Part shown: positions 4,701-51,917 of the stretch, piece after piece
Numbering within the stretch: the first letter of the stretch is position 1
How the letters are laid out: the number at the start of each line of letters is the position of its first letter
Assembly: GCA_051294375.1 (NCBI GenBank)
Contig: CM119265.1
Span: 21,514,278 to 21,578,277 of the forward strand
Reading direction: 5' to 3'
DNA length: 64,000 nucleotides
DNA from: Paraspadella gotoi
Lineage: Eukaryota; Animalia; Chaetognatha
Made by a program: the position numbers and the translations under genes
Notes under the pieces: generated by a model
The model's input: only the letters and a program-made list of their open reading frames with translations
What the model was told of the DNA's origin: nothing
Database searches by the model: none

Positions 4701-7700
4701 ATCACGGCATCTCATCAATTTTCTGACTTTCGGTTCAAAACGTATTCCCCAGTGGGCTTTCGTCATTTGCGCGATATGTTCGCCATTCAGTCAGATGATT
4801 TTCTTGTGAGTTTCTTTTTAACGTTTAGATATCATTAAAAGCTCAGTAAAACTTTTCCGATTTAAAGAAATGCGTTAACTGTTAAGCAATGAAGGGACAT
4901 GATAAACCAAATCATATATTGTCCTTCAGATTTCCGTTTGCAACGAGTCGCTTAAAGAATTGTCAAATCCCGGAGCCAGCGGATCCATTTTTTTCTTATC
5001 CCGCGACGACGAATTCATCATCAAAACTGTGCAACACAAAGAAGCAGAGTTTCTTCAAAAGCTTTTACCCGGGTATTACATGGTAAGATAATTCTTTAAA
5101 CGTTAATGTATTCAATTGCTTAAATATAAAAGCTATCTCTTTAAAAAATTTACTAAATTTTGATTATTTTATATTTTATAATTTATATTTTATAAGAAAT
5201 ATCCTTCATTTATGCATAAGTTTTGTTTTTAGCCGAATAATTTTCAGCCATTACCGTCATGTGCAAAAAAATCGCTCCACTTTATTCCGGACTTTAAAAT
5301 TATTCTATATATGTACTTGAATTCTTTTTAAAAATTTAAAAAGTGAATTTAAATTTATTGAAAGATGGATCGGCTCTCAAAATAAATAAATAATAATCTT
5401 AAGGTTATTAATATTTACGATGAATGACAGGTCCATAATTCTGAAGCTTTTAGATAAAAGTCGATTTTCCCGTTTAAAATTATTTTTTTATAAAATTCTT
5501 AGAAATGTTTTTATAGAGGGTCTGAAATTTAAAGTTATAAAGTGACCATATTTTTTTGCACGAGTGTATTTGAAACGTCGTTACCGAGCTCATGAAATAT
5601 CAACCGCTTTACTCTTTTATTTCAGAATCTAGTCCAAAACCCAAGAACACTTTTGCCAAAGTTCTTCGGTTTATTTTGCTATCAGTGTAGTGGGAAAAAC
5701 ATTAGATTAAGCATCATGAACAATTTGTTGCCAACGTCGATTCCCATGCATCTGAAGTACGATCTCAAAGGCTCAACGTTTAAAAGAAAAGCGTCAAAAC
5801 ATGAAAGGGCGAAAAAGGTAACCCGAACCGTCCCTTCTTTCGCTAAGGTAAGGATTTGCTGTCCGCGTTAACTCTCCTATCTTTCCCATCGCTTCAGTCG
5901 CCGACCTTTAAAGATCTGGACTTTTTGGAGCAACATCCTTCGGGGATCGAACTCGAGGTCGAGACCTACGAGGCTTTGGAGAAGACTCTCCGCCGCGACG
6001 TTCGCGTCCTCGAGTCCTTCAAGATCATGGATTACTCGCTCCTCCTTGGAGTGCACAACCTCGACGAATATGAGCGGGAGAAGAAGAGAACGTGCGTATT
6101 TGCTTGACTGTTTAAATCCTAATTAAATTTTTTTAAATAAGTTGAAAGTTTTATTCGAACCATCACTTTAACTTAGACGCGAAGAACGCAAAAAAGCAGA
6201 CGTCACTCCAGACTCGGGCGGCGGCGACAACGACGACCCCGAAAATGATGGCGATAACAACGAATCGCAAGAAGAAGCGGAATCTGAGGGTCTCGGCGCC
6301 ATCGCCAAATTGGCTGGAGCTTCAGTTAAAGGTAACATGAAAGGCGCAAAATTATAATTATTATTATCGTTGTTATTATTATTATTATTATTATCTCATG
6401 AAGTTACCGGATTCGCCTGAAAAAAATGAAAAAAATTGAAATTTATAATAACATATTTTATATTTTTGACCTAACTTTTTATAAAGAGTCACAATCTTTA
6501 ATAAATATATTTTGAAAATGAATTATTTTGTAAGGTTGGATAATGTTTAGCAGTCGATTATTTTTTAAAATTTTAATCATCGGTGAAAAATGATAAAAAT
6601 TAACGGTAAAACGTTAAAACCGGTTAATTTGGTTGGTAACTATCCTTATTTTTGGAGAATCACAGGAACTGCCAAAATGTCTTAATAAAATATTAGTTTA
6701 TATTCTAATTAATTTATATTGACCCCCTTTTCCTTTTATTTCTTTTTCTGGCAGACGTATATTCATTAACAATAAATTCTTCAAAAAAAAACAACTACAA
6801 AACAAAAAAAATCCTAAAGGATTGTGTACTTATTCATAAGGAATTTAAAATTCTGGTATAGGAGCAGTGAGCATTTGTTAACAGACAGTACCTTGGGAGA
6901 GTGGGACTCGTTGAACTTGAAACAAACAGAAGATTTTGGGCCATCAAAAACTCAAAATAAAAACATTTTAAAATTAACCGTTAATTTTAAAAAAATTAAT
7001 CGATCAATTTGAAGAGACAGTAATTATTGTAATGTGTTAGTGATAGAACCGTTCAATATAAACAGTCCCTGAGCTTCGGATCAGGGTGTAACACCATGTT
7101 ACAGGCGGGTTAAGCACCCCGTCCCTCTTAACTGCTAGGCGACCACCGGGCTAGAACCCTGGACCTTTGGGTTGGGAGACGAATGACTTGCCTCTGGCAC
7201 CAATGGCCGCTGATGAACGGTTGGTGGATTTTAGTCCACCATAAATTAAAATTATTTTTCATCGATGATTAACCGTTAATCGTTAATCGGATAAAAGGCC
7301 TAATTGGGACGAGCTGGAAGGGAAAATGCTATCCGAGAGGCAAATATAGGATATCCCCCCACATTACATATTAATTTATTATAATTATATTTGTTCGCAG
7401 CCATGATTGTTCGTCAGAAGTCGATGAATCGCGAGCGCCTTTCGACGTTCACTACGGCTATGGAGTCCATAACAGCGGAGACGCTGAACGACCCGATAGA
7501 TTTGGACGAAGACATTCCGTGAGTGATAAAATAAATGATTATAACGGACGACGAATCTGGCTGAAAGCTCGACTCGCTCTTCATTCCTTAATTGATACAA
7601 TTTGCTTCTAACAGCGTCGGCGGCATTCCAGCTCGTAACTCCAACGGGGACCGTCTGCTTCTCTTCATTGGTATCATCGATATCCTCCAGAATTATCGTC

Positions 7701-14189: not shown

Positions 14190-16869
14190 AATTATGTTTG
14201 TCATCCTCCTATTCTTCCCTCACACCCATTCAAAATCCCAACTTCATTTCCAGTTTTTTTTTGTTTTTTTTTCGCGCTATTTCAGTTTTTCTTTTTTTTT
14301 AATTAACCGCCCGAAAGTTCGTTTACTTCATCCGCCATATCCCGACTCCGATGGTTTTTCAAATTTTTTGGGCGTCATTTGAATGTTTTTATTTTTAAAA
14401 AATATAAAGATGATGTAGACTGGCCGAGCGTAATGTATCAGTCGACTATGTACGAAACGTTCTCGTACTGTTTTACGAAATTATCCGTAAAGAGCATAGA
14501 AAGCGAAAACTATGATTCAAGTTTTTCTGTACTACCTGTGTTCGTCAACTTGCAACATTTTTCTTATCTTTTCCATTTACCCCTCGAATTTTTAATATGC
14601 GAGACTGTACTTTAAAAAAACGATTTTTTTCCTCCTTTTATTTACCTTTTGTGGTGTTTCCAGTTATATCCAGCTAGCTGTTATTGTTTTTCCCCAAATT
14701 TTGTAATGACACACACAGAACAGTAATAAGAAATTAATTCAGCGGTAATCTATGCAAATTATAATTATATAGATTTCACAAGAATTGTGTCACAACCACT
14801 ACTCTTATACTTTAATACTTTCTGCTTTCGGAGTTCTCAAATACATTGTGTAGTACTTTTAAAAAAATTGGAGAACATAACTAACTAGATGGTGAATTTG
14901 TGTGGTGCAACACATTGTGATAATCTTATTCCATTCAATTTTAATATTATATTCTTTTTCAGTTCAAATTCTCATAAATGTATTACTATTATATCATTCA
15001 GCATCACTGCTGAGGCCTTATATCACATCATAAAAATTAAGATCCCAAATATTTGATCACACACTAAATTCGTTTATTTAATTTACCAAATCTGGCTTAA
15101 TTATTGCTACTGAGTAGCAAAAGTTGTCAACGTGATTAAGCTTTCGTCGCTTATGATTACTTTGTCAGAGAAATGTCTATATCATTCTTATTAATATCAT
15201 TAATTATTAAAACCAGTCCTATTAATTTAAATTTTTTTCATTTAATGCAATGCTGTATTTTTACTCATAGTCAGTCGTATATAATTTAAAAAATCATTAA
15301 CTAGTTTGGAGTCGGCAGATATTTGGCAGCACCCATCAACCTTCCATAATATTGCAAGTCAGCTTTTAAATAATTGTAATTTGTAATTAAATTTAAAACA
15401 TACTTTTAAGTAGGCCTTCTTCCAGATTGCCATAAATTTAGGCATTATTGTTGTTGTTATTATTGTTAAGCATTATTTAGGCTGAGATTACGGATTAGTT
15501 GAGAATTAATAAAATTATAAATCGGGTTTAAATTATGCAACATGATTAGGAGTAGCTTAACTCAGTAAGGTGGTTAAGAAATTTAAATTAATTTTTTAAT
15601 ATTTATTTATAAATAGGAACGGTTAAAAATTTTTTTAAGATTTTTTATTTTTAAGATCGGATTCAGGTAGCTTGCAAAAAGTTGTCTACACAAAGTATAA
15701 TTCTTTTTTCGATATTTTGATGTGGGTGAAAAATATGAAAAACTATTAATAATCATCATCATCATATTTCAATAATTTTATTACTTATTTTTAATTTTGA
15801 CCAAGAAAACGTAAGAATTTTGGAAAGTTGTAGTTATATATTTTTTTTTATTTATTCAACTTTTTATGCTTTATCAGAATAGGTCAAAAAAATTTAAGAT
15901 TGATTTAAAAAAATGTTATTATTATTTAGTAAAATTATTTTTTTACCTAAAAGTAGACTTCAAGACTAAAGTTTTGAACCCCCGCCCATATTGAATTTAA
16001 TTTCATAGTAGATTTCTAATATGATGATTTTTCTGTTTTTGAAATTGTCAATGGACTTATGAGGGGAAAAAAAATATGTGTTCTATGCAAGATACTTCCC
16101 CTTCAAACTGTCTGTGACACATTTCAAATATTATAAATATAAATGTGGTATTCTCCTTTGCGAGGAAGGAATATGTTGTTTTGTTTCTGGTCGAGGGCGC
16201 TGGTTTTTATTTTAAAAAATCGAAAAACCTTAAGTTCCTGGGATTTAGTCTGCTTTTACAAGATGTGCTTGTGTTGTGCACATTTTTTTCTGGGTTTGTT
16301 CTTTGCCTGCTTAAGTTATCTTAAGCTTAAGTAAGATTTTAATTTTCGCAGACAAATCATGTGCTTGTATGGCACAGTAAAATCTGCTACGTAACTATTT
16401 TCCCAACAAAAATATTTTTTTAAAATTTTATCATTAATAATTTTATTATTAATAATCATTAATAATTTCCGTAGAATTAGGCCCAAAATGGCTCTACTGG
16501 ATTTTCGAATCCTTAACGAGATAATTATAATTAGAAACAAAAGTTTTTATTCCCCTGAAAACAAAACTGTTCGGACAGTAAAATTAGGAAGGGGCTCCTT
16601 GAGTAACTTTTCAATCTACCCGTAACTAAAGTTATGTGCTAAAAGTTAATTGATTTTCGAAATTAAGATGTATTATATTATCTAAAAAAATTATATTTAG
16701 CTTTAAAATTTGAACAATTATTTTAAGAAGTATTATTAAAAAAAAAAAATTCTTCATAAAAAATATAAAAATGAATGAAAATATAGATATAGGTGAAATT
16801 ACACTAAGTAGGCTTAGTCGTTCTTACATTTTTTTAACCATATAAAAAATGCGTTAATTATATAGAGTT

Positions 16870-17128
16870 CTGTGGCAGCAAGACTTAAAGCTGCCTCACT
16901 GCTGTCCGTCCTCAGCCTCGTCTCAATGGCTGAGCAGGCTAAATCATCTCATTCCATCCGTGCGTCCCAGGTTCAATCCCTGGGTATCCCGGTTCTGGCT
17001 TAAATGTGACGGTGCCGGTATAAACATGCCAGTGACAGGAGGCGGTCACTGAGGGTCCGCAGCCCCTACGCCAGTTGGTGAGATACCCCGCGCCCCGGGT
17101 ATCACAGGCTATCCTCCCGTTGCCATAG
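16870..17128 (+). mobile_element. SINE/retrozyme-like element: A-box/B-box tRNA-like segment plus twister ribozyme inside a closing four-way junction (copy B)
   Basis: A box TGGCTGAGCAGG (16927-16938), B box in T-arm CCCAGG-TTCAATC-CCTGGG (16966-16984), twister 16995-17074, and 3' end GTTGCCATA shared with the copies at 35286 and 35697. Confidence 0.75.
16995..17074 (+). ncRNA. Twister ribozyme, type P5 (copy B, best preserved)
   Basis: P5 CTGGC/GCCAG; P2 ATGT(17004-07)/ACAT(17024-27); GA 17008-09; T1 CGG(17010-12)/CCG(17057-59); mini-P1 TGCCGGTA; TAA 17021-23; T2 GC/GC; P3 CAGTGAC/GTCACTG; P4 AGGG/CCCT. All consensus elements are in the right order. Predicted cleavage 17021|17022. Confidence 0.88.
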
Positions 17129-18208
17129 TTCAAACTTAAATTTATGGGTTTTAACCATTTTTATCGAGTGTATAAACGAGATCGTGATGGTTTCGATTGA
17201 AAGCTTGCAGGGATCTGTTACGTCATTATCTGTCCAAAGTCTGGTGGCAAGATGCTTATTTATTAAATGAATATATAATTTCATTGCTTTTCTCAGGTGA
17301 TGCATTGTAATATTATTAGCAATCACTTGTAGAGTTGGGTCGGATTTTATTCTAAATCGCTTGACCCGACTCCTTCCAAGAATCTTTTCGAGCGACACAA
17401 AGGAAAAACGCGGATCTCAACAAAGAACTGGAATATGACGAGCGAGAGGATGAGAAATCTCTCAACGATTCTGATGACGTGGAATTCGGAAGGAACTCTT
17501 CGTATTCAGCCTCGAATGACAGAAAAAAAAAATCACTTCTTTCCTTTTGGGATGTCATTCATTTGAATATCAAATTGTAAGCCTCGCGATTTTTCCCCCC
17601 GATTGCGTGCGTCGGTTGTATAAAAACTTTTTTCCTTTTTTTCAATTTTACTTACATGTCGCTAATTTCAAGTTTTTGTGAAAAATTCTTTATCCGTACT
17701 CTTTACAAATATTTTAATTATTAAAGCTCTACCCGGACAATTTAACTATAAATTTCTTTCTTTCTTTATTTTTAAACTATAAATTTCTTTCAAAATAAAA
17801 AATATCCTTAGTTGGAATTTTGTTAATATTTATTTAAAATGTGTATAATTTTTGCCAAAATAAAAATCGTTTAACCCAATAAATATAATATAATATAAAA
17901 AAGAAACTAGATCAAAGTGAAACTGATAGCTGACAAATCCGCTCGTCGAAGACGCCTGTTTCTTTTTCCCGTTCAGGGACGCGGTCGTAAATTATTTTTC
18001 TGAATCCTCGGGAGATCTTGCGGTTCGAACCGGTTTATTTAGTTTTGTTTTTTTTTTATTTCGTTTTCAGTTCGGAGCTTGACACGGATCTTACAAATCT
18101 TATACCCGGAACAGTTTCTAAAAAAAACAACAACAAAAAAACATTTACGATTTGTTTGGGAAACTATTCCAATGAAGATAAAAATAAAATAAGCAAACTG
18201 GATAGAAA

Positions 18209-21200
18209 ATGGCGGCTGCATCAGACGGCCCCACCATCTCCGGTGCCCTGAACCCCTTCGACGAGTACATGAGCGACTCTGATGACGACGTGAGTCAATA
18301 AATAATTATATAATCATAAAAGCAGGTCATCTTTCTCTTTATTTTTACTCTTTTTTGAGTATCGTTAATTTCGCCATGTTTAAATACCTCTTTCCATTAC
18401 TTATTCAGTCGCCTTCGTCAATGGCCTCGGGCTTAGACCGCAGAGCGAGCGCCTTCTTCACCTCCGAACCCAGCGGCGCCCATTCCGATCTAACCGGAGA
18501 CGAGAAGGAACTTCTCTCCAAGCTGGAAAGAGAGAATAAGTGAGTCTAATCCTTATTGACTCAATAATTCGAAGCCTCGAATTACGAGCCATCCCTCTCT
18601 TAAGGCGCCTCGAGGAGGATCGAAAGGCGGCGACGACGCTCTCGGCGGCGACGCACCTTGTTCCGATCGGCGTTAACCTGGCGCGACGCGCGTCCGGAAC
18701 TTCACTCGTTTCGTCCAATTCCAACAGCAACGTCGCGAGTGAGTATATAGGGTAGTGCGGGGTAATTCGGAACAGGGGTAATTTGGAACACTGCCATATA
18801 GAATTAAAATAATTATGTACTAATCTTCTAATTTTTTTAGTTTTATTTTATTTCACCAACTTGACTTCCATAATTAACGTTACAGCATTTCGCAATTTCA
18901 AAGCTGCGAGTCAAATTTCGTCTTTGAGTTGTCGTTTTCAAGCCTCTGACAGTCATATTTGACGTAATATGACTTTTTAATATTAATATATAACAGACGA
19001 GACTACTAATTTTTAGTTCTTAAATAGTATTAAAAAAATAATTCAATTATTTTTTACATAGCTACAATTAAATTGGGGTAAAACGGAACACCTGTAGACT
19101 GTGTAGAGTTTTGCGTTTCCTCGTATGCTTTTTATAATGTGTTAGCGGTAACTTTACTATTCGACGACCGAAACCAACCTTAGCTACCACCAGTCAGTGG
19201 TTTGTTAATCGATTAAATTTTGTTTTCCCCTCTAACGTAGAATCTCAGTTTGCGCAGGAATATAAATTTTTGTTAAGTTTTATTAAGAAACATAAATTTC
19301 GGACATGTTTCGGATTCAATGAATCTTAATTCATATGTCAAAAAAAGAGCGGTATTAAAAATACATTGATGCCGTAGAATGCTTGAGAATATTTTTTTTT
19401 ATATTGTAAAGTATCAATAAAATTTACAAGGCTCCGGGTAACTTTTCTGTGAAAGACAATGCATTATCATATTATGCAGCAACATTTATCCCTTACTTTA
19501 TAAGGGATAAATCTTTTTCACTACTCGCCAAGGACCATTTTTGCCACAAATCTGATAAAAAATATTATGTCAGAGATATAATATTAATAATAATATGAGT
19601 AGTCCTCTTGATCAAAAAAAAAAATAAAAACAGTTAGAGATGATAATAATAATAATAATAATAATAATAATAGAGAACTATTTTTATGCTGTTGAGAACG
19701 AATCTTTTTATTCAGTTTTAGGGAGGTCTTAATATATATCAAAACCTATTTAACGGCCAAAAAATGTTTGACAATGAAATTAACCGACTTTTCCAAACCG
19801 CGACAATTTTTTATTCCATTATGGTATCATCCCTTTGCTTAAAAGTTTACTAAATTTTTTTTTTAATTTCAAACCGTGAAATTTTTAAAATATTGTGACT
19901 TTAGTCACTTCAAACAAATGCTTCTGCTTCTCCCTGAAGGTTCGACAGAGGACCCCAATTCTGCGGAATCGTCCTTAGAAGAAGATCGTTGGAGCCTCTG
20001 GGGAAAGATCGTCAACGATTGGGACTCATATCGCAAAAAAACAGCCTTTGTTAAGGTAGGTTTTACTTTAAGAGAAAAGAGATTTCAAAATAACATAAAT
20101 CTGGGGACTTCGCCTTATCTTACAAATTTTACTATTGAAGGTTCTTGTATGTTTGATATTTATATTATTTTATAGGTTAATACTCGACGGTTTACGTTTG
20201 CCGTTTAAAAAATTCTTAACGGATACTACTGTAAATTTTCTGAGTCCAAATCATTTTTATACAATATCAACAATTTATTTTTTTTTCGTTCATTTTCTGG
20301 GATTGTCCCAATAAACTGATTATTGAAAATGTTGAATAGAGAAGCAGAGTTTATTACGCATCCCTTCCAAAACTGTCGACTTTCTGACAGCAGCAAAAGA
20401 GGAAGGAATGGCAGCATTCCTTATGAGGGCGGTCGCAACAGCATATAACACTTTCCCTGGACACTTTGAGAAAGTCATGGTTGCCGAAGGAGAATTATTT
20501 AAATAGATTGTATTCTGTTAATATTTTTATATATATATACCAATTTTCGCCAAATTGTCGTCGCCGCAAGATATTATTTTTTTTTACCCGTTCAATTTTT
20601 AATTTCGTCCCAAAAGTCCTGGACCTCCTTGTATATAAAAGTGAACAGGAAAAAAATTAAATGATAAAAATTGACTTTTGTTTTTTCAATTTGAACTCCT
20701 TTCAATTTTCACATTTTTCATTTTTCACATCTCAATTTTGTATGACTATGAGTTTAAAAAATTGTAAGGGACAATACAATCTTTTAAAAAAACCCCATCT
20801 GGAGTGAAGACCTTTTGCAAGCACTGAGCAAGCTTTTGTTACCGCGCCCGGTAAGAAAGCTTCCATTCCTACCACTGTGACCGCTTTCAGAAAATGGAGA
20901 TATGTAGGAGACACGTTGGACTTCTGACTTGAGCACCTCTCATTCTTAAAAGTCTAGGGTATCACAATCAGGAAAACAGGGGGGTAACAATTCCGGTTTC
21001 GTTTTTCTCTTGATTTCTGCTAAAAAAATTTAAAATTTTGTTTAGGAATGGCGCGGAAAAATTAGACATGTGATGGAAGAAAAATAAAGTAAGACAGTTA
21101 TCGAACAATTTTTAGGTCAAATCTATCGATCGAAACCTCTGTCGAGCTGTCAGTAAAACTTTATCAGAAAAAAGCTGAACCTCCCTGTAAAATATTTTCT

Positions 21201-24200
21201 TTTTTTTTAATAAAACATCTGTGGGCTCGTTGGAATTAAATATTAATAGTTCACGGTGATTTTTTTTTCTTAACAAAACAATATGCTAACAGTCAAGGCT
21301 TTGAATCGCGAATATTCTCTGTATTTCAGATCTTCTTTCAATTAATTTTTGGTAACTTTACTGATTCTCGCTTTGATCGACCTTTCTGATTTTTCAAGTT
21401 TGGACGAACGTTACCCTCGCACAAAATCATCTTTTCTCTTTTTTGTTCTGCGTGATGGTCCTGTGAAATGTGTTTTATAAGTTTTAAAACTGCGTGGCTG
21501 AGCAATTGCTTAAAGGTTGAAAATCATTTCTCTTTTATACCTTGACACACTGTGGAATTTCAGGAAGCACTTCATCCTCCGCCATACTTGGAATTAGCGG
21601 CACGCAGTGGTATACTGCTAACTAAAATTACCCAATATTTCGATTATTTAAAAACATTTTTTGCTAAATTTGTTTTACCTGTCCCGCTTCAATCCGAACC
21701 AACTTTTTGTAATCCAGAGGTTCCTTATATCTCTGTATAGGATGGTAGGTCTTGCCCAAAATATCACTAGTTGGCGGTACTCCAGGCCATTCCTCCGTTT
21801 CTCTTTCAATTTCCATTAATTTATGGCTATCATCTACTTTGTTACCTAAATTCGGGAAAGCTGAACTCATTTTTAAGTTCGGTAAACATTTTCTTTCTGC
21901 TTTCTGGGTAACTACTTTTATTTATTTTTATATAGTTGTAGAGAGTACCCACCTGCGAACAACCATTTTACTCGTCCTATTGTCCCGTTTTTTTACCGCT
22001 ATTTTTATTTATACTATCTCTTAAACACTAGTATTATTTTCATTTAAAGTCTCAATCTTTACCTTGGCAGTATCATGACATAACTAAACCTTGTTTCATG
22101 TTGCGAACCTGCAAATCTCACGCACCAAATCAGTATGATATTTTTCGCGTATTTCCAATATGGGCATGAGCCTTGGTTGTAAACCCTGTGTTATTAAATT
22201 TTTTAACTTTTTTTTTTTTATCTTTCACTACTATTGAAACCTTAAAGAAAGGGCAGAGGCAAGACGTAGTAAGTCCGATTTTACATGACGTTTGTCTGAT
22301 ATTTGTCGTCGCGTCACGTTTATGCGATTTTTTTCCTTGGCTGCCGCTGCCTCTATTTGAGAATCGGTTAGTGTAATGAGCGAGCCCCAACTGTCAACTT
22401 GATCGACAACCTGTTATAATAAAAAATCATTAGTTAATCTAAAGTTAATCAAATGAATACCTCGCACTTACTGATTCCACTTTCTCTTCCGAGGGAGCTT
22501 TGATTAATTCCGGTATATCCCATGGCAAGGATTTTTCTTGGCCAAATGCCCCTATATAGCTTCCAAGTATTGTCCATAGCCGAACGGTTCCTGAACTACT
22601 TGCAGAAGCCACTAACTCCTGATTTTTAAGAATTTTTTCAATAAAGTAAATTTTAACAGAATATTTGATATGAATAACTAACCTTTTCATCAATAAATTG
22701 CACTGCGACTGTGCTTTTAACATGCGCAAGCCAGCAATTAAGCCGTAAAGGAATTTTCAGAGTTTCGGCATCGAGATGTGATGGTAAAGAATCGGCGAAG
22801 GAGGAATATGTTTTATAGCGCAGCTTGGCAATTGATAGCAAATAGGGAAACCTTAAGCGATATAATTTAATTTGAATTTTTTTCTGTCGTTTATTATAAT
22901 GTTATATGATTTTTTAAAAGCTTTACCTTTGGAAATAAGGGTGTGCTTCTAGAACTTCATCCTCATCCTCCATTGTGCACAAAACCTGTTTTCCTTCTTC
23001 GCACCACCCACTAATATCCCATATATGAAGGTGGCCAGTGCTACATTTATAAAAAAAAATTTATAGATTGTTTTACAACAGTGAAAGTTGTCAATAAGTT
23101 ACCTATCTCCTATAAAAAGCATAGTTTCCTTTTCATCAACATCGATGCACATTATGCCACTTGATTCATTAAAGGCAGCATGGAACTGACCAACGAGGCC
23201 ACCTTGAGGATGTGTTGACCAAGCCCTAATCTGGCATTAGTATTAATTTTTTATTATAAATATTTATTTTTGAATATGATGGTTTTGATTAAATATTTTT
23301 CGTTCAATTGTTAATCTAAAGATGCTTCACAAGCTTATTTGTGTAAGGCTATTACTACGACAGAAATGCCTCAACTTTTCGTCATTTGAATTTACTTACC
23401 CATCCCCCTGAATCAGCTGCAATTAGTGTGGCGGTTAAACGCTTCTGTTCTCTAGTTTTTAAAAAAATTATCTTCTCTATCTGAATATGTAATAAAGCTA
23501 GATTGATAATAATTCGATAATATCTGAAATATTTTTTTTTACCGCGTTTCTGTATTTGTCAGACTCGACATCAACATCATAATTATTTATGGTTTCTGTT
23601 GGAACTTCAATAATTTGTTCTGCACCAATGCATACTCCATAAGGATTAATCTATGATTATTCCCGTGAAAATAAATAATTAAATTAAAATCATTTATTAA
23701 CTGCTGTTATTTCTCACCTTGTCTTTGGCATCTTCTATAGTCCTTCTCATTAATTTTCCGAACACTGACTGTGGATAATCTAAATATGACATTGAGCTAT
23801 TCTATTATACCCGTTTTTTTTTGTTGAATCGTGAACGTCGTAGTGGCGGTTTTTTTTTTATAATACCAAGTGTTATATAGGTTATATAGGTTTTGATTGA
23901 AAATTAAGTTACCTGGTTCTTCAAAGCCTTGTGAATGTGTAGATGTTTTAGCTATTGGGGGTAATATTATTCCCTTTGTTGTGTCAGCCGGTATATTCGA
24001 ATCTGGGCCAGACATTTCACTTTGTCTTGATCCTTTTCGTCGACCATCTGTTTTCATTCAATATTTAAAATTTATTTAAAACTGTTTTAGATGTACCATT
24101 AGATCCAGTTCTCCTTTTATATTAACTATCAAATGATCCTGGTGATGTTTGTAACTTTGATGGTGTGAGAGAAGGTTTTGATTTTGTATCTTGCCCGGCC

Positions 24201-27200
24201 GAGATAGATTGATGGCTTCGCGTCTTTGTCACTAAGGCAAGTGTAAGCATTAAAGATGGTTTATTTGCGGGGTATTGAAGTATTTTATTTTTTTGCTACT
24301 TCGAATTTTGTAAATGTTTAATAAATTATACAAATCTTATGGTTAACTAAACATTCAATTTTTGTTAACTTTAATCATATAACTTTTTGCTTTTACTAAA
24401 TATATAATATTAAATTTGTATTACTTTTAACAAGCAGAAAGCATTGGCATAATTTTTTTTAAATTCAGAAGGTTTTTTCCCAATCTAATTATGATCGCAA
24501 ACTTGTCATAAAAAATTTGGCAAACAATTTTCGTTTTCACTACTCCATACTATGTAAAAGTAAAATTTTCAATAAATAATACATTTTTTAGAATAAAACT
24601 GAAATTTTTAAACATTAATTTACCCTTTAAGGAAGGTTTCGTCTTTCCACTTTTTTGACTATTGCCAGGATCGTCAAGCATTCTCTTTCCTCCCGAATCT
24701 ATTTGTCCCATTTCTTTAAGCGCCATCATTGACCAAACAGTAATAGGATAGCGAGATGTTGTTGCATCAAGACGAAAAATCAAATATCCTGTAGAAGATA
24801 GTAAAAAATATTTCATAAGATACTTAAATATTTTTTTCCTTTCTTTGTGGTTTTTCCTCCATCTCAAAACGAGTAACACAGAATAAGAATTTAATTCTTG
24901 CGAATGACTAAACCCTGTACAAGAGGCGAATTTAGGATTCGCCACAGTAACGTGAATAGTTCCAAAAATTCATGAGATTGATACAACTAAAGTGTCATTA
25001 ATGAATGTTTTGTTCATCAGTGTAGAAATAGGTTTTTTGTTCTGATGAAGGCCAACAGTTTAGCTGAAACATGTACGTTTTTTAATAAAAATGAAAACAA
25101 ATTTATTGTTTGTAAACAAACTTAATTTTTATTAATTAATTATTATTCTCTATATAAAAAAATTCTTGTGTCTTTATTTCGTCGAAATAAAAGAATGAAA
25201 GGGAGCAGTTTATTTGGTGTCATTCGCTTTGGGATCCAGAGTAAATACTTCTTTGTCTTTAAAACCTGCCTGTATCTAAATTCCATACTATCATTTCGCC
25301 GTCATATGCTCCTGTAACTAAAATATGCAGTGCCTCATTTGCTGACATTGACAAAATATCCTCTTTATGCTTTTGGGGCCAAACTTTGGTCAAAGGATCA
25401 ACAGCCTATTTAAAAAGTTTGTATCTTTGGATATTATTAATATCTTATTAATATTATCTGGCAACCAGATGAAAAAATGAATAAACCTCATTGTCCACAC
25501 CATCAACAAAAACTGTCACTCTTTTATTCCAACCGGCTGCAAAAATACATTGCTTTGCAAATACAATGCATGTAACTTCTGTGTTTCCAACTGTCTCCAT
25601 CGTTCTTAAAATTTGCCCTGAAATGTAAATACTTTACTTTTGGTGGTTTACCCACTGATATTTTTTTATACCATTGTTGTAATTCCATATTTTTAATGTC
25701 CCGTTTGAAGCCCCAGTTATTAATCTAGTTTTTTTTTCAACAAAGCAAGTTGCGGTTATTTCAACTGGTTTTAATCCATGCATTGATGTCGTATGCGCGT
25801 TGATAAATTGGATAACTTTTTGACCTAACATTAATACATGAAGTAGATTAAAACCCCAGAAACTTTCGCTTATGTCACTTATTTTTGTACCTGTGGCGAT
25901 ATCAAATACTGAAATAGTTGAATTTATGTCCGTACTCACTATTACTTCAAAAATGTCATTGTAAAGAGCCGAAGTGACCTGATATTAAAATTTTGACTTT
26001 GTGCCTTAGATTTTTTGACGAAATCTAAATTATGGATTTTTATTTAACGTACTTCGCAAGTATGTGACACTGGTTTCCCTGCTTGTTCTTTGGGGTCCAA
26101 TTGTTCTAGTAAAATTACAACGTTGGTTGCTATTCCCAATGACAATAATTGGGGATTGAAGCAAACTGCTCCTATGCTTCTATGGGTGTTTTTGTCAAAT
26201 AATACGCGTGGACTATAAAAAAAATATATTCCTACAATATTGCCACTCACATATAAATGTATTGGTAATTACGTTAAAGTTTGTAAAGATAATCCGTCTT
26301 TCATATTCCAAACAATGATTACATTGTCCTTGGAAACTGATATAAGCTGATCACGAAAAGAATCCATTTGTAATTGAATAACGGAAACAGTATGACCTTT
26401 CATCACTCCAATAGAATGATTAGGAATAAAAGGATCCCATAGTTTCACTAGCCCATCCTCAATGTTTGAAATACTGATTAATTTTTTTCTTTCAAAATCC
26501 TAATTTTACCATCTAAGAAAAAAGTATATCACATTATTAGTCGAGGATATCTATTCGAAAACTTGTTCAATTTTTTTATAAATCTGAATGTTTCCGAATC
26601 GACATCGAATTTCCTTTCAGTAGATTCCATTTTTTCGTAGGTCAAATCGTTTAGAAGTAACAAGCAAAAATGATCGCTACTTCAAATGAAAAATGGCGAA
26701 AAAATTTAGTTTTCTACCATTTTTGTATTTAGTTATTAAATTTTATTTTGAATGGAGTTAGTTTTTTTTTTAAAGTTTTTAATTGAATAGTTTTCAACAA
26801 TTATGTGATATACCTTTTTCCTAGATGGTAATCAGTTGCAGATTCCCTTACTGATTGTCCAGTGATGATCACGTTTCCATTCGAGCGAAATTCAAAACAA
26901 TTTATTCCTCTTGAATGTTTAAAATAATGACCATGTGGTTCTGGTGACGGCTCTTCAAGATTTATATGCCCAAAGAACATAGCTGTTTCGAAGTCGCTTT
27001 AATAAAAAAAATAATAAAATAACAATTTTTGGCTGAATAATATTGATTCATTTTTCGAAACCTGCAACAAGAGAGAAAAAAATTATTCCGTGCTTTTTCG
27101 AAATATTTTACACTTGTCACCCAATCGCGGTGCAGATTTTTGTATAGGACAGCGTTTAAAGTGACACATTTTCCTGAAAATGTATATTAGATATGGACAT

Positions 27201-30200
27201 AAAAACAAAACCTTTTATTGTCCATGAAATGAGCCATACCTTTGATCATCTCTTCAAGTCGTATAACTTGAACTTCTGTTTGTTTTTTATACCTTCACAT
27301 AAATAACCTATTATTATAATTTGTAAATACTTTTCTTAATACTAATTTTATTATTAGAAATTTCTCAAAAGATTGAAGTGTTCAAAAGATTTTTACATTA
27401 TAAATACAGTGACGTGATTAATCTTTCTTTCGTTTTGTTTGTGTTATTTGAGATTAAATAGGACTAAGCTCTGACGAAAAAAGCCAGAGGTTTTTTTAAT
27501 ATATTCTTTTACCGGCCAATGTAGAATGATGGCAATATTGCTATTGTTAAGTTTCAAAAAAAATCCGACCATAAATATAGAAAATATTAACCAAAATCTT
27601 TGGAAAATCCACCCCTTCTTTGGAAGATTTTCACCATAGACGATTTTTATTGAATCTGACTCCCGGTTGAAAACTCTTAAAATTCCGATCATTAGCTCCT
27701 CTTTTACTTTTACTTTAAATAAAAATTTCACCAAAATGGACTAATTCATTTTACCATGATTGTATCATATTAATATAACCAAATAAAATGTGAAGAAAAA
27801 TTTTGAGAGCACGTGGGCAATAGACTTGTGGAGTCCCACACTTCGACCACAGGCACTTCGATGGACTTGTGGACAACTGACGGAGGCGGTGACAGAGGCT
27901 GACACCCTCGACGACAAAGGGTCTCGGCGTCACTCGCGACGGCACCACCAAAGGGGCGCTGGATGCGGCCGCGCCCACTTCCGGCGACGAGGGGAGTTAA
28001 CGGCAGTCTCCCCCAGTAATGGCGCGACGGGTCATAGGATGGAGATAAGCCTGGCAAGGCAGTCTGACTACTAGTTCCTCGACAGTAAAAGGGCCTTATT
28101 TGTGTCTTCGTCCTTTGGGGTCATAGGACGGAGATATGCCTGGCGAGGTAGGCTGACTACGAGTTCCTCGACAGTGGAAAAGTAAAAGTCAGTGGATCAA
28201 TTTTATTAAAAGTATCAGAAATTGTGGATCAACAATGGTTCTTTAGGTTTGTTTTAAATTTGTTAAAAATAAAGACTATAATAAAGATATTACTGTAGTC
28301 GGGCATTGCATAAGTTCACCCCGCCTATGAGCATGACACCTTCAGTCGTGACTCGGTTGCTCATTGAGTAAAGCCATCAGCTCATGACCACTAGGTACCA
28401 GGTTCAATCCCAACCCGGTACCTACCCTGCGGGAAGCATGAGGACGGCCGTAAGCCGCCTTGGGGGCGTGGAAAGCCCTCAAGCCTGATTCCAAGCCCAG
28501 GACCCGTTCCATGGCTGCTAGAGGGGGTCATAGAAGTTATGGATAGTCATCTTCAGCCCACATAGCGCCTTATCCACATTAGCCATTATAATAATTATAG
28601 GTATCAAGTATATTTAGCAAAGGAGGAATTGTTGTAAGCAGAAAAAAGGCACAATAAATCTTAAGATCATAATAGATATATTATATCAGTTTCACACATA
28701 TGGATGATTCATAGGCCTTAATATACAGTAAGAAAGATGAAATAAAATGACTATCGCCAGAACTGCTGCTGGTGAATTTTTGCGCATCATTTTTGGGAAT
28801 CAAGAATGATCAATTTGTTGAGAGAAAATCTATTTGCATCTCCTGTAACCAGAGGTTTTGCGAGGAAAGCCTAGTTTTTGCGCAACAATAAAAAGAAATA
28901 TTGCTTTCTGTACTATTCCAATATTTTTCTTATTTGAAAGATTCTTTTTGGGTTTTTAGTTAGACTTACCCCTACAGTACCTAGATTTAAAAAATAAAAT
29001 TTTTCTTCTTAGAATTTTCCATACAGTAAATATTTCAAAAAACCTTGTTTTTTGGAATCAAATTCCCTATTATTTTTTGGTCGATAGAAAAAAAAAAAAT
29101 TCGTCGAATACTGCTAATCCCTATCTATGGCGAAAATCTTCCAAAGAAGGGGTGGATTTTCCGAGGATTTTGGTTAATATTTTCTATATTTATGGTCGGA
29201 TTTTTTTGAAACTTAACAATATCAATATTGCCATCATTCTACATTGGCCGGTATAAAAATATATTTAAACCTCTGGCTTTTTTCGTCAGAGCTTAGTCCT
29301 AACATTATCTAATATATTTTCTTACCAAATGTTAACCTCTGCTTCTCTCTCTCTCTTACAAAATTTAATTTCTTTTCCCTCACATTCTCTCTCTCTCTCT
29401 ACCAACTTAAACCTGTCCTCACATTTCACCACTGTTCTGTCTCACATCTTTGTTGGCCATTTTTTCCCTCTCTATCACTCTCTCTCTCTCTCTCTCCCTA
29501 AGTCAATTTTGAAAACATGAAAATGTGAATTGTCAAAGCATTGATGAAGGCTTGAATGTAAGCCAAAACTTGTCTGTACCACTAAAAATAAATTCGTTGA
29601 TGTAAAAAGACTGTCTTTAATCTCAAATAAATACAGTGACAAAAAACTAAGTTAACCTCATCGGGTTTTACCTGCACCATATAGTTTCAATTTAAGATCG
29701 CCAAAACAATTCATAATTTTGTAAAAACTATAAAAGTGTTTTTAATTATGAATCTAGTAATAATTTACTTGCTAGTTTTGGTAAATAAACCTGATCCATG
29801 CAAAGCTTCATGCCAGACAACAGCGGTGACATTTCCATTGTTGTCACCCATAATCATTATAGCTTGATTCATGTTATCTTTGTTAAACCAATAGTCAATG
29901 CAACCCAAGCAGGTCTCAAATCCGACGATGTGATAGCGTCTGAAAGAAAAATTTCAGAAAATTTGTTAAAAAACTAATTAAATAATACTTTATTTTTTGT
30001 GGATTACCTCCAAAAAGAAGTGCCGGTTGTATCATAAATATGGATATCACGATTGGTAGTTGTGGCGGCTATTGCATTAACATTAAGCATTGAACAGGCG
30101 TCAAGGATCCAAACCTATTTAAAAATCCCATGAAAACGAAAGGCCAATTATTTTTCTTTTCTATATTACCTTACTGTTCATTGCTTTACGAGTAGGAGTG

Positions 30201-33200
30201 TCTTTATCTAATGAAAGGTCCATCGGCTGTAAAAAATTTTAGATGAGCATTTTTTGAAATTTTATTTTTAAAACAACTCGCTTCTGCCTACACTTGTTCA
30301 TTTTTAGGCTTTCGGATATAATTTTTTAATATTTATATATATGTATTATTATAAAAGAGACGAAAAAGTTTTTACAACAACGGTTTATTTTTATTCAATG
30401 GACATGTTTCGACTTTTGTACAAGTCTTCATCAGCAAATATCAGTTTTTTACCCAATATGTATTATTATATAAAATCCCATTTTCTAACCTCTGATCTTC
30501 GATGTTCTAAAGTAGGAGACCAAAAATTAACAATTCCGTCTTTAGATATGGATAAAAGACTACCATTCAAGTAATCTAATTGGTTGGCTACAGCCTCTTG
30601 TTTATTAGCATGTCTCATTGAAGGAATGAGTAAGAGTTTGATTACATTGACTTTATGACTGGGATGTCCCTAAAAGAAAAGGAGTACATAGAACAATGAA
30701 ATGACTCAAGAATTTTTTTAAAATTATACTTCTAAAATGTAAATATTAATTCTATATACCTCTAAAGACGGCCTGGGAAAAGGTTTTAAAACACTCATGG
30801 ATTGCATTATGTCTTTTTCTTGAAATTCTAATAACATATATCCGAGGTATTCATCCCAATCAACGTTTTCATCGCAGTTGGCATCAATCTAACAATTGGG
30901 TTTTCTTTTTATGAAATTTACCCCTTTACAAGATAATATTTTACTCTGTCGTTATTTTAAATGTTGACTATTACTATGGTTAACTTTACCATTTAATACC
31001 CCTAAGTGAATAATATCAAAGTTGAAAGTTCATGCAATCGTCAGTTTTCTAACTTTCATGAAAAGTAATTCGAGTTCTCTTTCAGTGAGCTGAGGCATGA
31101 TTGTTTTCATTGCTGCGACAAATTCTTCGATATCCAAAGCTTAAATTAAAGCGGAGGAAATGCTGAGCACCCAAATAGAAAGCCTTTTCAGTAATTTGCA
31201 CACAACCTACTTCCTCCCCCGTCGGCGTCCGCTTCCAAGAACATTTTTTCCAAGCGGATCAGTTGTTTCTTGTTAAGTTCTTTTTCGATTTTTGCTTCCA
31301 TGTCAGTCTCACTCCCGTTGTCATCTTCGCTAGTTTTTGCCGCCGCCTGAAAATTTTACGAGAATTTAAAATTTTCACCGTGGACCGCATTATGAAATTT
31401 TCTCCGACTTCCCTTCGTCTGACTTCATCTATTCGTCCTACTAACTCGCAAAACTAGAGAATCGTAACAGAAATCTTTTCTCGGGATCCGCAGAGTTCGC
31501 CGTCAGTAGAGAAATCGATCAAAACAGGAAAAATCGGGGCATCGAGATGGGGTCTTCAGTGTCGCAGGGTTAAGGCTTTCCGAGTAACTAAGTCACTAAC
31601 CTCGAAAATATAGGGTAATTTCGGCTCCGAATTCGCGCGAAACGAAAAGACCCGAGGTCGCGAAAAGATTTCGAGGCCAACTCAAAAAAACTTATACACT
31701 ATCATCGAAAATGACCGCAAAATTTTTTCAGTTAAATAATTAATACTTCCATTATTTTATACTATTTGATTAAGTGTTTAAATCTTAATGGTTACGAAAA
31801 TAAAATACTTGGAAAATTTCGCGAAGTTCGTTTGACTTTGAGCGTTTTGATATACATCCTATTTAAGTTTTAAGCTTTATTTTTGGGAATGACTTTTTGA
31901 TGACACGTACAAAAAAGGAAAGCTATTCATTCCTCCATCGATTCAACCGAGTATTGACCTACTACATGGGACGTGGTTAATGTTCACTCGTCTTGCGATC
32001 CTCGCTTGGCCCAGAAAACTCTTTCCTCCTATGCCCGTGCCTCAAACTGGCTCAGATCTCAAGCCAGAGTGCCCTACTACGCTATCTGTGGTTAAAACCT
32101 ACCCCGTTTTAATTCTCGCGCATATAGAGCGTTTAAGGTGATCCAGTTTCCCGCGGAATATCGAAATTGTGAAAGTTTTTTATTTGCCTCGAGGAAAAGG
32201 TTTTCAGTAACATAACCTCTTCTTCTTCGTCCTCGTCGTCGTCGTCCCCCTAAATTTGAGAGAAAATGTTTGTTCAAGGATGAACGTTGAACCAGTTTTG
32301 AACCTGTAGCAACAATGGATTTATTTACCTCATTGTCATTTTTTCCGCCTTTGACGTCATTCGCTGACAAAAAGTATTAAAATACATGCAAATTGTGTGG
32401 ACATAATGGCAATTATTATGAAACATATATGCATACAAACATACTTAGAAACAATTTGTCTACAACCTAACCGTTTCTCTTATGAAATTGGTACAACCAA
32501 TATATATTTCTCTTGTTTGTTGTAATGATTGTTGTTATTGTGCAATGTGCATCTGTATCATTAACTTGATATGTATAAAAACACCTCATTATTATATAAA
32601 TGAATGGATAATTTTTCTATTGGTTGTACCAATTTCATAGAAATTTTCTTCTCTTGACGGCGAGAGGGAGGGGACACCCTCGCCCGGGAGGGCCCCTGAG
32701 AAGAGAGAAAAAAAAGAAAATAAGAAAAACCGTATAACCGATGTCTATTGCCGCTCATGGTTAAAAATAAGCGCTAAATCTCATCTAGTCAGAAGGTTTA
32801 ACAAATTTAGACCCATCGCTCAGACTAGAAGAGGGGCACAATGATTGTGTTAAAAAAAAACAATTTCAGTAAAACACCAATGCCAGGTTGCAAGACCTGG
32901 AGGCAGAAGCACTGGAGAAATGTTCAAGGCAAAAAGTCGGTAATCGAAAACTAAAAACTTAAATTATGGAGAGCGGGTGGGGGCCGACTAGGGGGCCTGT
33001 GGTGGGGCCCGCCATTCTCTCGCCGCCCCTGCTCACCATTGATGCTGGAATCGCTGTCATCATCGCGGTTCCCCGTGTAGTATTCGTCTATTGATATAAA
33101 GCAATTATATATTTATCTTTTTAATTTTAAGAAGAATTTAAAATGTTCAAACTTGCCTAAGTAGTGTTCTTCGTTGAAAGGCATTTTGGAAGAAAAAAAT

Positions 33201-36200
33201 TCCGAGCTTTTATTGAGTATTGCTCGTTTCCTTGAGCTGTTTTTTTACTGTGAAATATTGGTTTCTAGGAACTGGTGCGTCATGGCATTCCGAGGCCTTT
33301 TCGTGGGCTTGCTTGGCAACTCATATCTGGAGCGTACGATTCGGGATCAAAAGAATTATACAGGTTTTCACGAACCTCGTCTACCCATCGCCCTATCATT
33401 TTTAAATCAATACTGGATTAATTTTACTTTCGCCGACCGGGGTTAAGGGTGGTTTAGGGTTACGGGTATTTAGGGTTAATAGATAATAATTTTTTTTAAT
33501 TTTTTTAAAAATAAAAAGTTTAAATTGGTTTTTCAAAAAACGCCAAAACCCCGGTCGGCGAAAGTAAAATTTTGCCTCAATACTTTTTGTTTTTTCAGCG
33601 AATACATGAAACAGACTTCGCCGTGCGAGAAAATCATCCGGCGAGACATCGCGAGAACTTATCCCGAAAACGATTTCTTTCGTGAGAAGGATGGCTTGGG
33701 CCAGGAGAGCCTTTTCAACGTCATGAAGGCTTACTCTCTGCATGATCGGTTTGTAAATCTTTTTGCTTACTTTTCAATTATTTTTAAACCAATTATCCGT
33801 TGAAATTTATTTTCATTTTGTTTGCAGTGAAGTGGGCTATTGCCAAGGTTCCGCATTCATAGTCGGTCTTCTTTTAATGCAAATGCCGGAGGAAGAAGCT
33901 TTCGCCGTACTCGTTCAACTCATGCAGAGATTTCAGCTGAGAGAATTGTTCAAACCGTCCATGCAAGGTTATTGAATACTGTTCAGTATTCAGTGTATAC
34001 AGATTACATAGGCTTATCTGATAACAATGATCTCGGTCTCACTTCTTCTGTAAACTATGAAGCTTAACTTTTAAAGCATTTTCACGAGGCTCAAGGTGTT
34101 ATTGCATCGATTATTACTACTATTATTATTATATTAGAAAGATTTACTTTATATTTCAGAACTAGGACTTTCGATGCATCAGCTAGATTCGTTGGTCCAA
34201 GAGCAACTTCCCGATCTTCATGCACATTTCACTCAACAGAACTTTCATACTACTATGTACGCGTCGCCATGGTTTCTGACGCTCTTTGCCACCTCGTTGC
34301 CACAGGTACATATTTGCTTCTATAGTCTTATATTAACCTCAGCCCTTTCTGTTACTACATATTTGTATCTATTACATATGAAAATTTGCAAATTACTTGT
34401 TTCACTATTTTCTATTTTATATTTATGAAGGATTTAGTATTTAATCTTATTTTTAATCAAACATATATTGCTTTCTTTCTTAAAAATGTTTTATTTATCT
34501 AATAATTCAATTTGGGAAGGGGAAGTCAGTGTTGTCTTCTGGAAATAGAGGGAGCATCTATACAACACAAGGTTAGATTACTATCTGTCCTAGTTTTCTA
34601 ATAGATATCACACATCATTTCTGTTAGAAAGTCATTAATGAAAAATCATAATATCTAAGAGGCTGAACAGAAAGGGGTGGGAATGGATAATTTTTTAGGG
34701 GTTACCAAAGTTATATATGATTTTTTTTACCAATAGGGATAAGACTACCATGTAGAATTGTATGTTCTGATAGGGATACATACCGGGGAAAGGTCTATAG
34801 GGGCACCTTTATGTCATGAATATAATTTTAAAATTATATTTTTTCTTTATTCTACTTTTTAATTATTTCTTTTTTGAATATTTTTATCTTTTATTTTTAT
34901 ACAATGGGAAGGTCATCAGTTGGGAACCTATACCCTTCATGGATTTCGGCTCTTTAATCCCAATATCCAGGTATAGGCGAGCCATCACCAAATGGTGATC
35001 CTTCATTGTTGCTTATCTTATATTTTAAATGTATATCTTGAATGTTTATCTGAAACAGACCAAAGCCCTGGAGAAATTTTATTAAGGTTTTGTAATAATT
35101 TGTAATTTGTAAATAAATAAAATAAGTTAAATAATTAGTTTAATAATAAGTTAATAATTAAGGGTATGTTAATGTAAAGTTAACATTAAGTTAATTGGTA
35201 AAAGTTAAAAAATAAATTAAATCAGAGAGTTAAATATAATAAATATATATATATAAAGCAGTGTTTATTTTGAGTATTATAGTATTATGGCAACTGCCGG
35301 GTTTCCTGTGATGCCCATCTCACTGTTGGCTTTGGGGGCTTCTGACCCTCAGTGACGCCTCCAGTCACTGGCGCAGTTACTCTAGGACGGTCTTGCTTTG
35401 CCAACGCAGAGGGAAGACTGGATGGAACACAACGCCTGGGATGGTGTGTTCCCCCTCTGAGCCAATGGGATTGGCTAAACGATGATGGACATGAGGTGGT
35501 GTGAATATACCACCACAGGATCCCCAGTCCATCACTCGGGTTCCTCAAGCCTGAGAGGTGTCTGACAAGACTATTACCATAGTGGGAGAGAGAGAGCGAG
35601 CGCGAGTTGAGGGGGCATAGGCGTTTGTCGTAGCGTACCCAAAGTTGGCAGGGCATAGGCATTTGTCGTAGCGTATCCTGAGAAGGGCTCACCACTTATG
35701 GCAACAGCCTGCAATGACCTTTGGGATGGGGCATCTCAATGTTGGCTTTGGAGGCTTCCCACCCTCAGTGACGCCTCCAGTCATTGGCGCGGTTACCCTC
35801 GGACAGTCTCGCTTTGCCAACGCAGAGGGAAGTCGTTAGGACTGTGGGATGGTGTGTTCCCCCTCTGAGCCAATGGGATTGGCTGAACGATGATGGACGT
35901 GAGGCGGTGTGTATATCCCGCCACAGTATCTAATATTTCTTTAGCATTTTCGATTTCTTATGTTAATGTTTTTTTCAACTCAGGATCTTGCTGCGCGCGT
36001 CATGGATCTCATTTTGGCTGAAGGAACGATCTTTATTTTCCAAATGGGAATGGCTATACTACGCATGTCCGCTTTGGACCTCATGGCTCTCGACATGGAG
36101 CAAATGATTCGGGTGAGAAAATATATGGAGCCGAATGCGTGCAAGAATAACCTCATTTTATGAAAAAATTTGTAATCGAAAGAAATTCATCGTACACCTT

Positions 36201-50138: not shown

Positions 50139-50446
50139 TTCTTTAAAATTTAATTAAATTAATTTATTCGTACCATGTGACTTTTATGGAATTTTTTTAG
50201 ATGTTTAATGGTGGTTTTTTTTTTTCATTACAACAATTCGTTTTTCTGAAATTAGTGTGATTTTGTTTTTCTCTTTTTCTTACCTCGCTCTGAAAACAAA
50301 AGACGAAACAAGATCCGTTATTTCTTGTATGATTGATTTTTGTTGTAATGAAGCGTTTATTGGTTTCCAATTTTTTACTACGCTACCAGAACTAACTACT
50401 GAAATTATTACATTATCAGTTATTTAGTTGAAACAATTAAAAAATC

Positions 50447-51868: not shown

Positions 51869-51917
<49 letters not shown>

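Follow-up and report, generated by a model that had tools for sequence, protein, structure and literature searches.

Two groups of described retroelements come closest to the elements analyzed here. The Helenus/TRIMp3 elements are non-coding, shorter than 1.3 kb and have two long terminal repeats (LTRs) with tRNA-like A and B boxes, a primer binding site (PBS) as well as a polypurine tract (PPT), and they are also found as solo LTRs (Kojima 2024, PMC10886601). In animals, Helenus elements have a target site duplication (TSD) of 4 bp and a Gypsy-type PBS, they depend on Gypsy elements, and several families can be present in a genome (PMC10886601). The LTR retrozymes of plants carry a ribozyme in each LTR and have a 4-bp TSD, PBS and PPT, solo LTRs and a Gypsy-type mobilisation (PMC4918200, PMC7761336). 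Their unit-length RNA is without an R region and follows a cut-and-circle route, for which the circles have been demonstrated (PMC4918200). LTR retrozymes are still regarded as mainly plant elements in a preprint of 2026 (10.64898/2026.07.22.740005). Here we analyze a stretch of 64,000 nt from the chaetognath Paraspadella gotoi (GCA_051294375.1, contig CM119265.1, positions 21,514,278-21,578,277 of the forward strand), in the following called the window. It contains five GC-rich islands, numbered copies 1 to 5, in which a twister ribozyme fold accompanies a tRNA-like segment. We suggest that these elements are best read as animal LTR retrozymes.

The twister consensus comprises the helices P2 and P4 and two pseudoknots, with P3 and P5 being optional (PMC5408937). 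Inside all five islands the GC content is 0.52-0.58 vs 0.15-0.40 in the AT-rich outer flanks. Each of the five copies has the same motif order, that is, P5, a 4-nt P2', GA, T1', a loop of 6-8 nt, TAA, P2, GC, P3 and P4, and in the 3′ half T-T1-(A/C)A-GC followed by P4' and P5'. The conserved GA, the U^AA, the GC/GC of T2 and the L4 letters are kept throughout. This layout is the consensus order of twisters with the ends placed in P5 (type P5). The letter-level consensus agrees with the consensus line of Rfam. A preliminary description, made from the letters of the window, had proposed the five islands and their type P5 order; both GC content and order were confirmed in the sequence, and the P5, T1 and P4 stems quoted there are correct, as is the U^A site at 17021|17022.

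We scored the fold with a twister descriptor (maximum 27), the distance ranges of which were fixed after seeing the copies. Across the window the five copies rank on top with scores of 27, 25, 23, 23 and 22, and the sixth site reaches 13. Block-wise local dinucleotide shuffling (n=300) yielded 0.007 sites per window with a score of at least 22 and none with 23 or above. When the descriptor is applied strictly, that is, mismatch-free, copy 2 is the sole site, with 0.02 expected per shuffle. A descriptor site at 31154-31248 was rejected as a twister because of its score of 13. The intact fold of copy 2 (16995-17074, + strand, 27/27) has its GA at 17008-17009, and cleavage is predicted at the U^A site named above. 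Copy 1 (7061-7136, - strand, 25/27) has T1, P3, P4 and P5 intact and a short P2, with the predicted cut at 7112|7111. Copy 3 (28429-28507, + strand, 23/27) has a broken P2 and would be cut at 28451|28452. The folds of copy 4 (35325-35405) and copy 5 (35741-35821), both on the - strand, have predicted cuts at 35379|35378 and 35795|35794. The T1 helix differs across families (CGG/CCG vs GGA/TCC), the latter version being that of copy 3. P1 appears vestigial in all copies, a loop of 6-8 nt in which no more than 2 pairs closing 4 nt could form; P1 has been reported to be dispensable in twisters (PMC5408937, PMC11662667).

Since MAFFT misaligned copies 1 and 3, a home-made covariance model (R1) was built from copies 2, 4 and 5 only. 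It recovers copy 1 unaided (20.5 bits, with a rough E of about 0.005) and fails to find copy 3. Among the three copies used for the model 89% of the cells pair and 6 pairs are altered on both sides, a count from three related rows only. A scan of metagenomes with the P3 stretch common to copies 2, 4 and 5 gave 0 matches. In a metagenome scan with a generic twister pattern, P2 and P4 were both paired in none of the best 25 of at least 120 loci, and we count this scarcity in favor of a real fold in the copies. Could the twister resemblance have arisen by chance in GC-rich repeats? The distances of the descriptor were tuned on the copies and Rfam gives no significant match, which would fit a chance origin. 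Against this stand the scores of 22-27 vs 13, the 0 of 300 shuffles at 23 or above, the independent recovery of copy 1, and the fact that in all copies the fold has the same position and strand relative to the promoter boxes. We regard chance as extremely improbable and consider, with high confidence, the five sites to be real twister folds.

Upstream of the fold lie sequences that resemble the internal promoter of tRNA genes. In copy 2 the A box (16927-16937, + strand) and the B box (16970-16980, + strand), the latter within a T-arm hairpin, together have 1 mismatch to the two motifs. Copy 3 has a B box at 28401-28411 (+ strand) and a decayed A box. Among 1000 shuffles, as good a pair of boxes was found 0 times for copy 2 and 0 times for copy 3, 108 times for copy 1, 334 times for copy 4 and 729 times for copy 5. 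Thus, of the tRNA-like boxes put forward in the preliminary description, those of copies 2 and 3 are significant, whereas those of copies 1, 4 and 5 are no better than in shuffled sequence. In copy 1, where the boxes alone are not significant, a tRNA-sized segment closed by a stem of 7-8 bp is seen by eye at 7138-7210 (- strand). The B box stands 11-17 nt before P5 and on the same strand in the four copies which retain one. ARAGORN found 0 tRNA genes in the window, and Rfam scans of the window and of sub-windows around copies 1, 2 and 3 gave no significant tRNA match. Likewise, the Rfam scan of the window gave no hammerhead match.

The borders of the islands resemble those of LTRs. Copies 2, 3, 4 and 5 start with TG and end with TA or CA. 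Copy 2 (16871-17127, 257 bp, + strand, TG...TA) is a solo LTR between two perfect GTTC 4-mers (16867-16870 and 17128-17131), and its ends share a 9-nt terminal inverted match. Copy 3 (28294-28578, 285 bp, + strand, TG...CA) is a solo LTR within another repeat; its flanks, TTAC and TTAG, are a target duplication with 3 of 4 letters matching. Copy 1 (7033-7243, - strand) belongs to a divergent family and was read by eye as a probable solo LTR; its ends are approximate, and no target duplication was found at them. Copies 5 and 4 are direct repeats around a GC-rich spacer, and a single ATAC duplication (35926-35929 and 35282-35285) encloses the resulting 640 bp (35286-35925, - strand). They form the 5′ LTR (copy 5, 35697-35925, 229 bp, with the A box kept and the B box lost) and the 3′ LTR (copy 4, 35286-35517, 232 bp) of a full element, with 194 of 224 aligned columns identical. 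Therefore the window holds four families and not five independent copies. Copy 2 is 59-61% identical to copies 4 and 5 (z about 9-11), and the four families are only 47-61% alike over the LTR.

The internal region of the full element (35518-35696, 179 bp, GC 0.55, - strand) starts with AG-TGG, such that TGG stands 2 nt after the 5′ LTR, and ends in a short purine run. The PBS-like start (35685-35694, - strand) matches 9 of 10 letters of the tRNA-Trp PBS given in Fig. S2 of Kojima. Within the internal region, 35605-35678 holds a direct repeat of 36 nt (86%) as well as a run rich in CT. In the window, 4 of 168 pairs of end motifs have a perfect 4-mer match where about 0.8 are expected, and two of the 4 are the elements described here. 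A candidate sixth element with a 4-bp match (15721-15990) is AT-rich and without the promoter-ribozyme cassette, and we set it aside as chance.

Contigs of sequencing runs were mapped to 16550-33400, and read support thus concerns copies 2 and 3. For copy 3 an empty-site joint from 28293 to 28583 (runs X1 and X6) skips 289 nt, which is exactly copy 3 plus 4 bp. Contigs with loose ends mark both of its edges (126, 66 and 116 before 28294 and 60 behind 28578). Loose ends were also found before 16870 at copy 2 (n=9 in run X5, n=2 in run X9). The contig depth is about 1e5 on copies 2 and 3 vs about 50 on unique flanks, so both are highly repeated, although the depth is not a copy count. Two contigs of run X9 show a stretch rich in purines ahead of a copy-2 LTR start, with 21 purines among its last 24 letters; this observation is weak (agreement 0.65). 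Run X9 contains spliced contigs as well as contigs on copies 2 and 3; these contigs show neither strand, ends nor independent transcription.

From these footprints it appears quite probable that the islands are LTRs of short non-coding LTR retrotransposons, that is, TRIMs (terminal-repeat retrotransposons in miniature). We propose that formation of solo LTRs and decay explain copies 1-3. Two other kinds of element have to be considered here. The first is a miniature inverted-repeat transposable element belonging to a DNA transposon that moves by cut and paste; its terminal inverted repeats would be short, its duplications 4 bp long and its RNA motifs incidental. The terminal inverted match of copy 2 and the occurrence of single units in three of the four insertions would agree with it, but one duplication enclosing two direct repeats and a PBS/PPT-like spacer does not, and DNA transposition has no use for a cassette of promoter and ribozyme that is specific for one strand. 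We give this explanation very little credence.

The second is a short interspersed nuclear element (SINE) with a tRNA head which trims its own transcript by the twister and is moved by the enzyme of a long interspersed nuclear element (LINE) or by a Penelope-like enzyme. Short dispersed copies, the lack of a clear duplication at copy 1 and tRNA-type boxes preceding the ribozyme, as in the hammerhead SINEs of Schistosoma (PMC6765202), speak for it. The A box, however, lies 53-56 nt inside the element start in copies 2, 4 and 5; the tRNA-like part thus begins well inside the element, with a fixed TG upstream, and the designation as tRNA-headed had to be dropped. With the ends in TA or CA, the 4-bp duplications, and a two-LTR element in which TGG directly follows the first LTR, a SINE is largely refuted and very improbable. 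The preliminary description had seen the family as a hybrid of SINE and retrozyme. The retrozyme half stands, whereas the SINE half fails because a tail, A-rich or of simple repeats, is missing, the TG start is upstream of the tRNA-like part, the duplications are of 4 bp and the two-LTR element has PBS- and PPT-like ends. Its broader claim, that the retroelement is non-autonomous and combines a promoter-like segment of tRNA origin with a type P5 twister fold, is supported. We also set aside a reading as Penelope pseudo-LTRs in view of the TG..CA ends, the 4-bp TSD and the PBS; no search for Penelope proteins was made.

We lean, with modest confidence, towards the following mechanism: LTRs of Helenus-type TRIMs, with a decayed tRNA-type promoter and a twister, give rise to a unit-length RNA which is closed to a circle and copied by a borrowed reverse transcriptase, likely that of a Gypsy element. 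We infer the steps of cleavage, circularisation and copying from the fold, the ends, the duplications, the empty site and the one two-LTR element. RNA polymerase III (Pol III) would initiate within the 5′ LTR, at its tRNA-like segment, and meet no run of four T (T4). Then the twisters of both LTRs would cut at U^A, trimming the leader and any read-through. The predicted cuts at 35795 and 35379 are at the same place in both LTRs and 416 nt apart. The product would be a 416-nt RNA with a 5′-OH and a cyclic phosphate as ends and without terminal redundancy (R repeat). Ordinary strand transfer would be unable to turn this unit RNA into a two-LTR element. Since the R repeat is lacking, we invoke circularisation, as in plant retrozymes. 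In the P5 permutation the cut would fall between the general-base G and the general-acid A, with the G on its 5′ side, leaving half of the ribozyme on each side. P5, P2 and T1 (about 12 pairs) bridge the cut, and therefore the two ends of the unit RNA would stay paired for ligation. A host ligase such as RtcB would close the circle, the predicted junction of which is identical to genomic LTR sequence. Finally, a tRNA would prime at the PBS, the reverse transcriptase would run round the circle and rebuild two LTRs, and an integrase would give the 4-bp duplication.

Several observations weigh against this proposal and are given together. Concerning the fold, pairing of P2, P4, T1 and T2 is complete in copy 2 only and four of the five folds have flaws: P2 is reduced to 2 pairs in copy 1 and to 1 pair in copy 3, and copies 4 and 5 have one P2 and one T1 mismatch each. 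The earlier statement that the stems differ and yet keep pairing holds fully for copy 2; it does not hold for P2 in copies 1, 3, 4 and 5, nor for T1 in copies 4 and 5. A match to the Rfam twister-P5 model had been set beforehand as the test by which the claim could be refuted, and there is none in the scan of the whole window (which covered copies 4 and 5) or in the sub-window scans of copies 1, 2 and 3; the descriptor and the home-made model still support the fold. The single twister match in Rfam is to twister-P1 at 17030-17068, the P3-P4-L4 part of copy 2, with 13.6 bits and E = 1.6 at a gathering threshold of 67.2. For copy 2, the minimum free energy (MFE) fold (-26.0 kcal/mol) is more stable than the twister fold in its nested form, which reaches -19.5 with pseudoknots excluded, and the MFE z-scores of the twister cores are ordinary. 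The covariation comes from just 3 sequences, which are related, and CpG decay may account for one difference between copies 4 and 5. Concerning the element, the only one with two LTRs is old, with an LTR identity of 86.6%, a T1 mismatch in both twisters and poor boxes. Its PBS-like site agrees with the tRNA-Trp PBS at 9 of the first 10 positions and then diverges, matching no tRNA beyond 10 nt, its PPT-like purine tract is short, and copy 4 taken alone has a flank match of 3/4 (ATCC/ATAC). The predicted circle has an unremarkable stability (z -1.4). T4 runs number 0 in the 1388 nt of the copies where 2.3 are expected (P about 0.09); this absence is not significant and is weak evidence, as A4 runs are nearly absent too.

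The flaws of the folds have to be seen together with published measurements. Twisters tolerate flaws in P1, P2 and P4, whereas mismatches in the pseudoknots lower cleavage (PMC11662667). Copies 1-3 are therefore the better candidates for cleavage, as their T1 is intact, and the twisters of copies 4 and 5 are likely weakened by the T1 mismatch. Changing the general-base G to A lowered twister cleavage just from 0.76 to 0.54, and altering the A after the cut abolished it (PMC11662667). The same flaws, found in four of the five folds, would fit a twister that is a mere passenger; in this case a SINE-like unit carrying the ribozyme would have entered a TRIM LTR a single time, and the fold would now be idle in copying. 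Kojima proposes the insertion of a SINE-like unit into a TRIM LTR as the origin of Helenus (PMC10886601), and Helenus elements without visible ribozymes are widespread. However, the four families, which are only 47-61% alike, have retained the catalytic letters while bases paired with each other in P2, T1, P4 and P5 have been exchanged. Neutral decay would not produce this, and we hold a passenger to be improbable.

We regard it as somewhat less improbable, though still unlikely, that the same TRIM is copied linearly, without any need of a circle, and that the twister takes the place of the T-run terminating Pol III transcription in ordinary Helenus LTRs. The ribozyme of the 3′ LTR would make the 3′ end, the one of the 5′ LTR would often escape cutting, and the stretch from start to cut would act as the R repeat in normal strand transfer. 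In most Helenus LTRs examined, the tRNA-like part is followed by a T-run, at the position occupied here by the twister; the copies have no T4, and copy 2 has a competing MFE fold. On the other hand, the LTRs are identical at birth, and selective cutting therefore requires context-dependent folding. In addition, plant LTR retrozymes accumulate as circles (PMC4918200). Returning to the circular route, we tentatively extend it to an animal class of Pol III LTR retrozymes, TRIMs which combine in their LTRs a tRNA-derived promoter and an interchangeable ribozyme (a type P5 twister here and, apparently, a hammerhead in two Helenus families of wasps) and replicate via a unit-length circle; we consider this generalisation possible, with a little less than an even chance of being right.

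The neighborhood of the copies is rich in other repeats and genes. Inverted repeats of 182 bp (27459-27640 and 29301-29124, 94% identical, with high contig depth) enclose the repeat that hosts copy 3, and this arrangement probably represents an element of DNA-transposon type carrying nested insertions. At 28029-28182, a short way upstream of copy 3, two GC-rich direct repeats of 58-65 bp follow each other with an 89-bp spacing in the moderately repeated host element. Fragments of another high-copy repeat family lie at 17195-17272 and 32597-32639, as seen from contig joints and shared loose ends. A transcribed gene at 20871-24624 (- strand) has at least 14 introns of 55-392 bp according to spliced contigs of run X9. 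Further on, there are a vasa/DDX4-like gene with a CCHC knuckle (50441-53063, + strand), the best named invertebrate relatives of which are only 55-68% identical, which indicates a sparsely sampled host lineage, and at the window end a divergent coding stretch for ribosomal protein S5/uS5 (rpS2-like; 63429-63875, + strand). Bestrophin and EGF genes are also present in the window; together with the vasa/DDX4-like gene and the introns seen in RNA contigs they mark the DNA as that of an animal.

Our search of the literature, which included two preprints and a TRIM paper of 2026 and did not extend to subscription papers, Repbase or the supplement of the original twister paper, yielded neither twisters within LTRs or TRIMs nor, in animals, any LTR retrozyme that has a tRNA promoter. 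So far, such a layout has been described mainly in plants, with a different ribozyme. If our reading is true, the range of LTR retrozymes would grow beyond plants and hammerheads and take in animals and twisters. The publications consulted assign the twisters widespread in animals a role at the 5′ ends of LINEs only, and the elements described here suggest a second, testable job. As very high-copy families are missed by Rfam, twisters may be undercounted and repeat libraries may hide unannotated ribozymes.

With Helenus, the elements share a short non-coding body with two LTRs (640 bp, one example), the 4-bp TSD, ends in TG...CA/TA, boxes in the LTRs, solo LTRs and the presence of several families in one genome. 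In most Helenus LTRs examined, however, the tRNA-like part is near the 3′ end and followed by a T-run, whereas here it lies in the middle of the LTR and is followed by the twister without T4. The main text of Kojima has the word ribozyme only in the title of a reference and names none in Helenus (PMC10886601), and no twister was seen by eye in the published Helenus consensus LTRs of parts 1 and 5-9 of the 11 supplement parts (PMC10886601). Two LTRs from wasps, Helenus-2_SyJa-LTR and Helenus-2_SyUm-LTR (277 bp, 4-bp TSD), contain by eye in DataS1 an apparent type III hammerhead. In both, the tRNA-like part is in the middle of the LTR, and the hammerhead-like motif, with long complementary loops, comes just after the B box. 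The motif is unmentioned in the text of that paper, and the internal regions of both elements contain T4 runs. The link to Helenus matters further, as it would bear on how a Pol III transcript acquires the ends needed for LTR-type copying.

Plant retrozymes, by comparison, have a type III hammerhead and a tRNA-Met PBS, and no tRNA-derived promoter has been described for them in the sources consulted; here we find a twister and tRNA-type boxes, and the circle is predicted. The element thus seems to behave like an LTR retrozyme, yet it is not a member as defined, the defining hammerhead being absent. With the type P5 twister of Rfam the copies share the order of P5, P2, T1, T2, P3 and P4 and the conserved letters; they differ by the apparently vestigial P1 and do not match the model. 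Twisters have been mentioned for RTEs in the literature, and in Schistosoma the Perere-3 LINEs carry twister variants with a weak P1 (PMC8501958). Perere-3 is an autonomous non-LTR element with a single ribozyme that trims the 5′ end and without tRNA promoter or LTRs, and what is shared is a weak-P1 twister in an animal retroelement. In the SINE-like hammerhead repeats of Schistosoma the Pol III promoter is directly upstream of the ribozyme, so that after cleavage the promoter lies at the unit's 3′ end (PMC6765202). Unlike the elements here, these repeats use a hammerhead, are in tandem and have no LTR, PBS or PPT (PMC6765202). The tRNA-derived SINEs start at the tRNA head and have an A-rich or simple-repeat tail and a longer TSD of variable length, features which the copies do not show.

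A further comparison is with the engineered Tornado system, in which twister cleavage and RtcB yield RNA circles in cells (10.1101/2023.07.11.548538). Tornado is synthetic, uses two different flanking ribozymes and is not mobile. The likeness lies in ribozyme cleavage on either side, base pairing that keeps the ends together and ligation by RtcB, all of which are proposed for the element described here. If the proposal is true, this element would be a natural counterpart of engineered twister/RtcB circularisation and would provide a biological reason for the P5 permutation, namely that the cut ends are held together.

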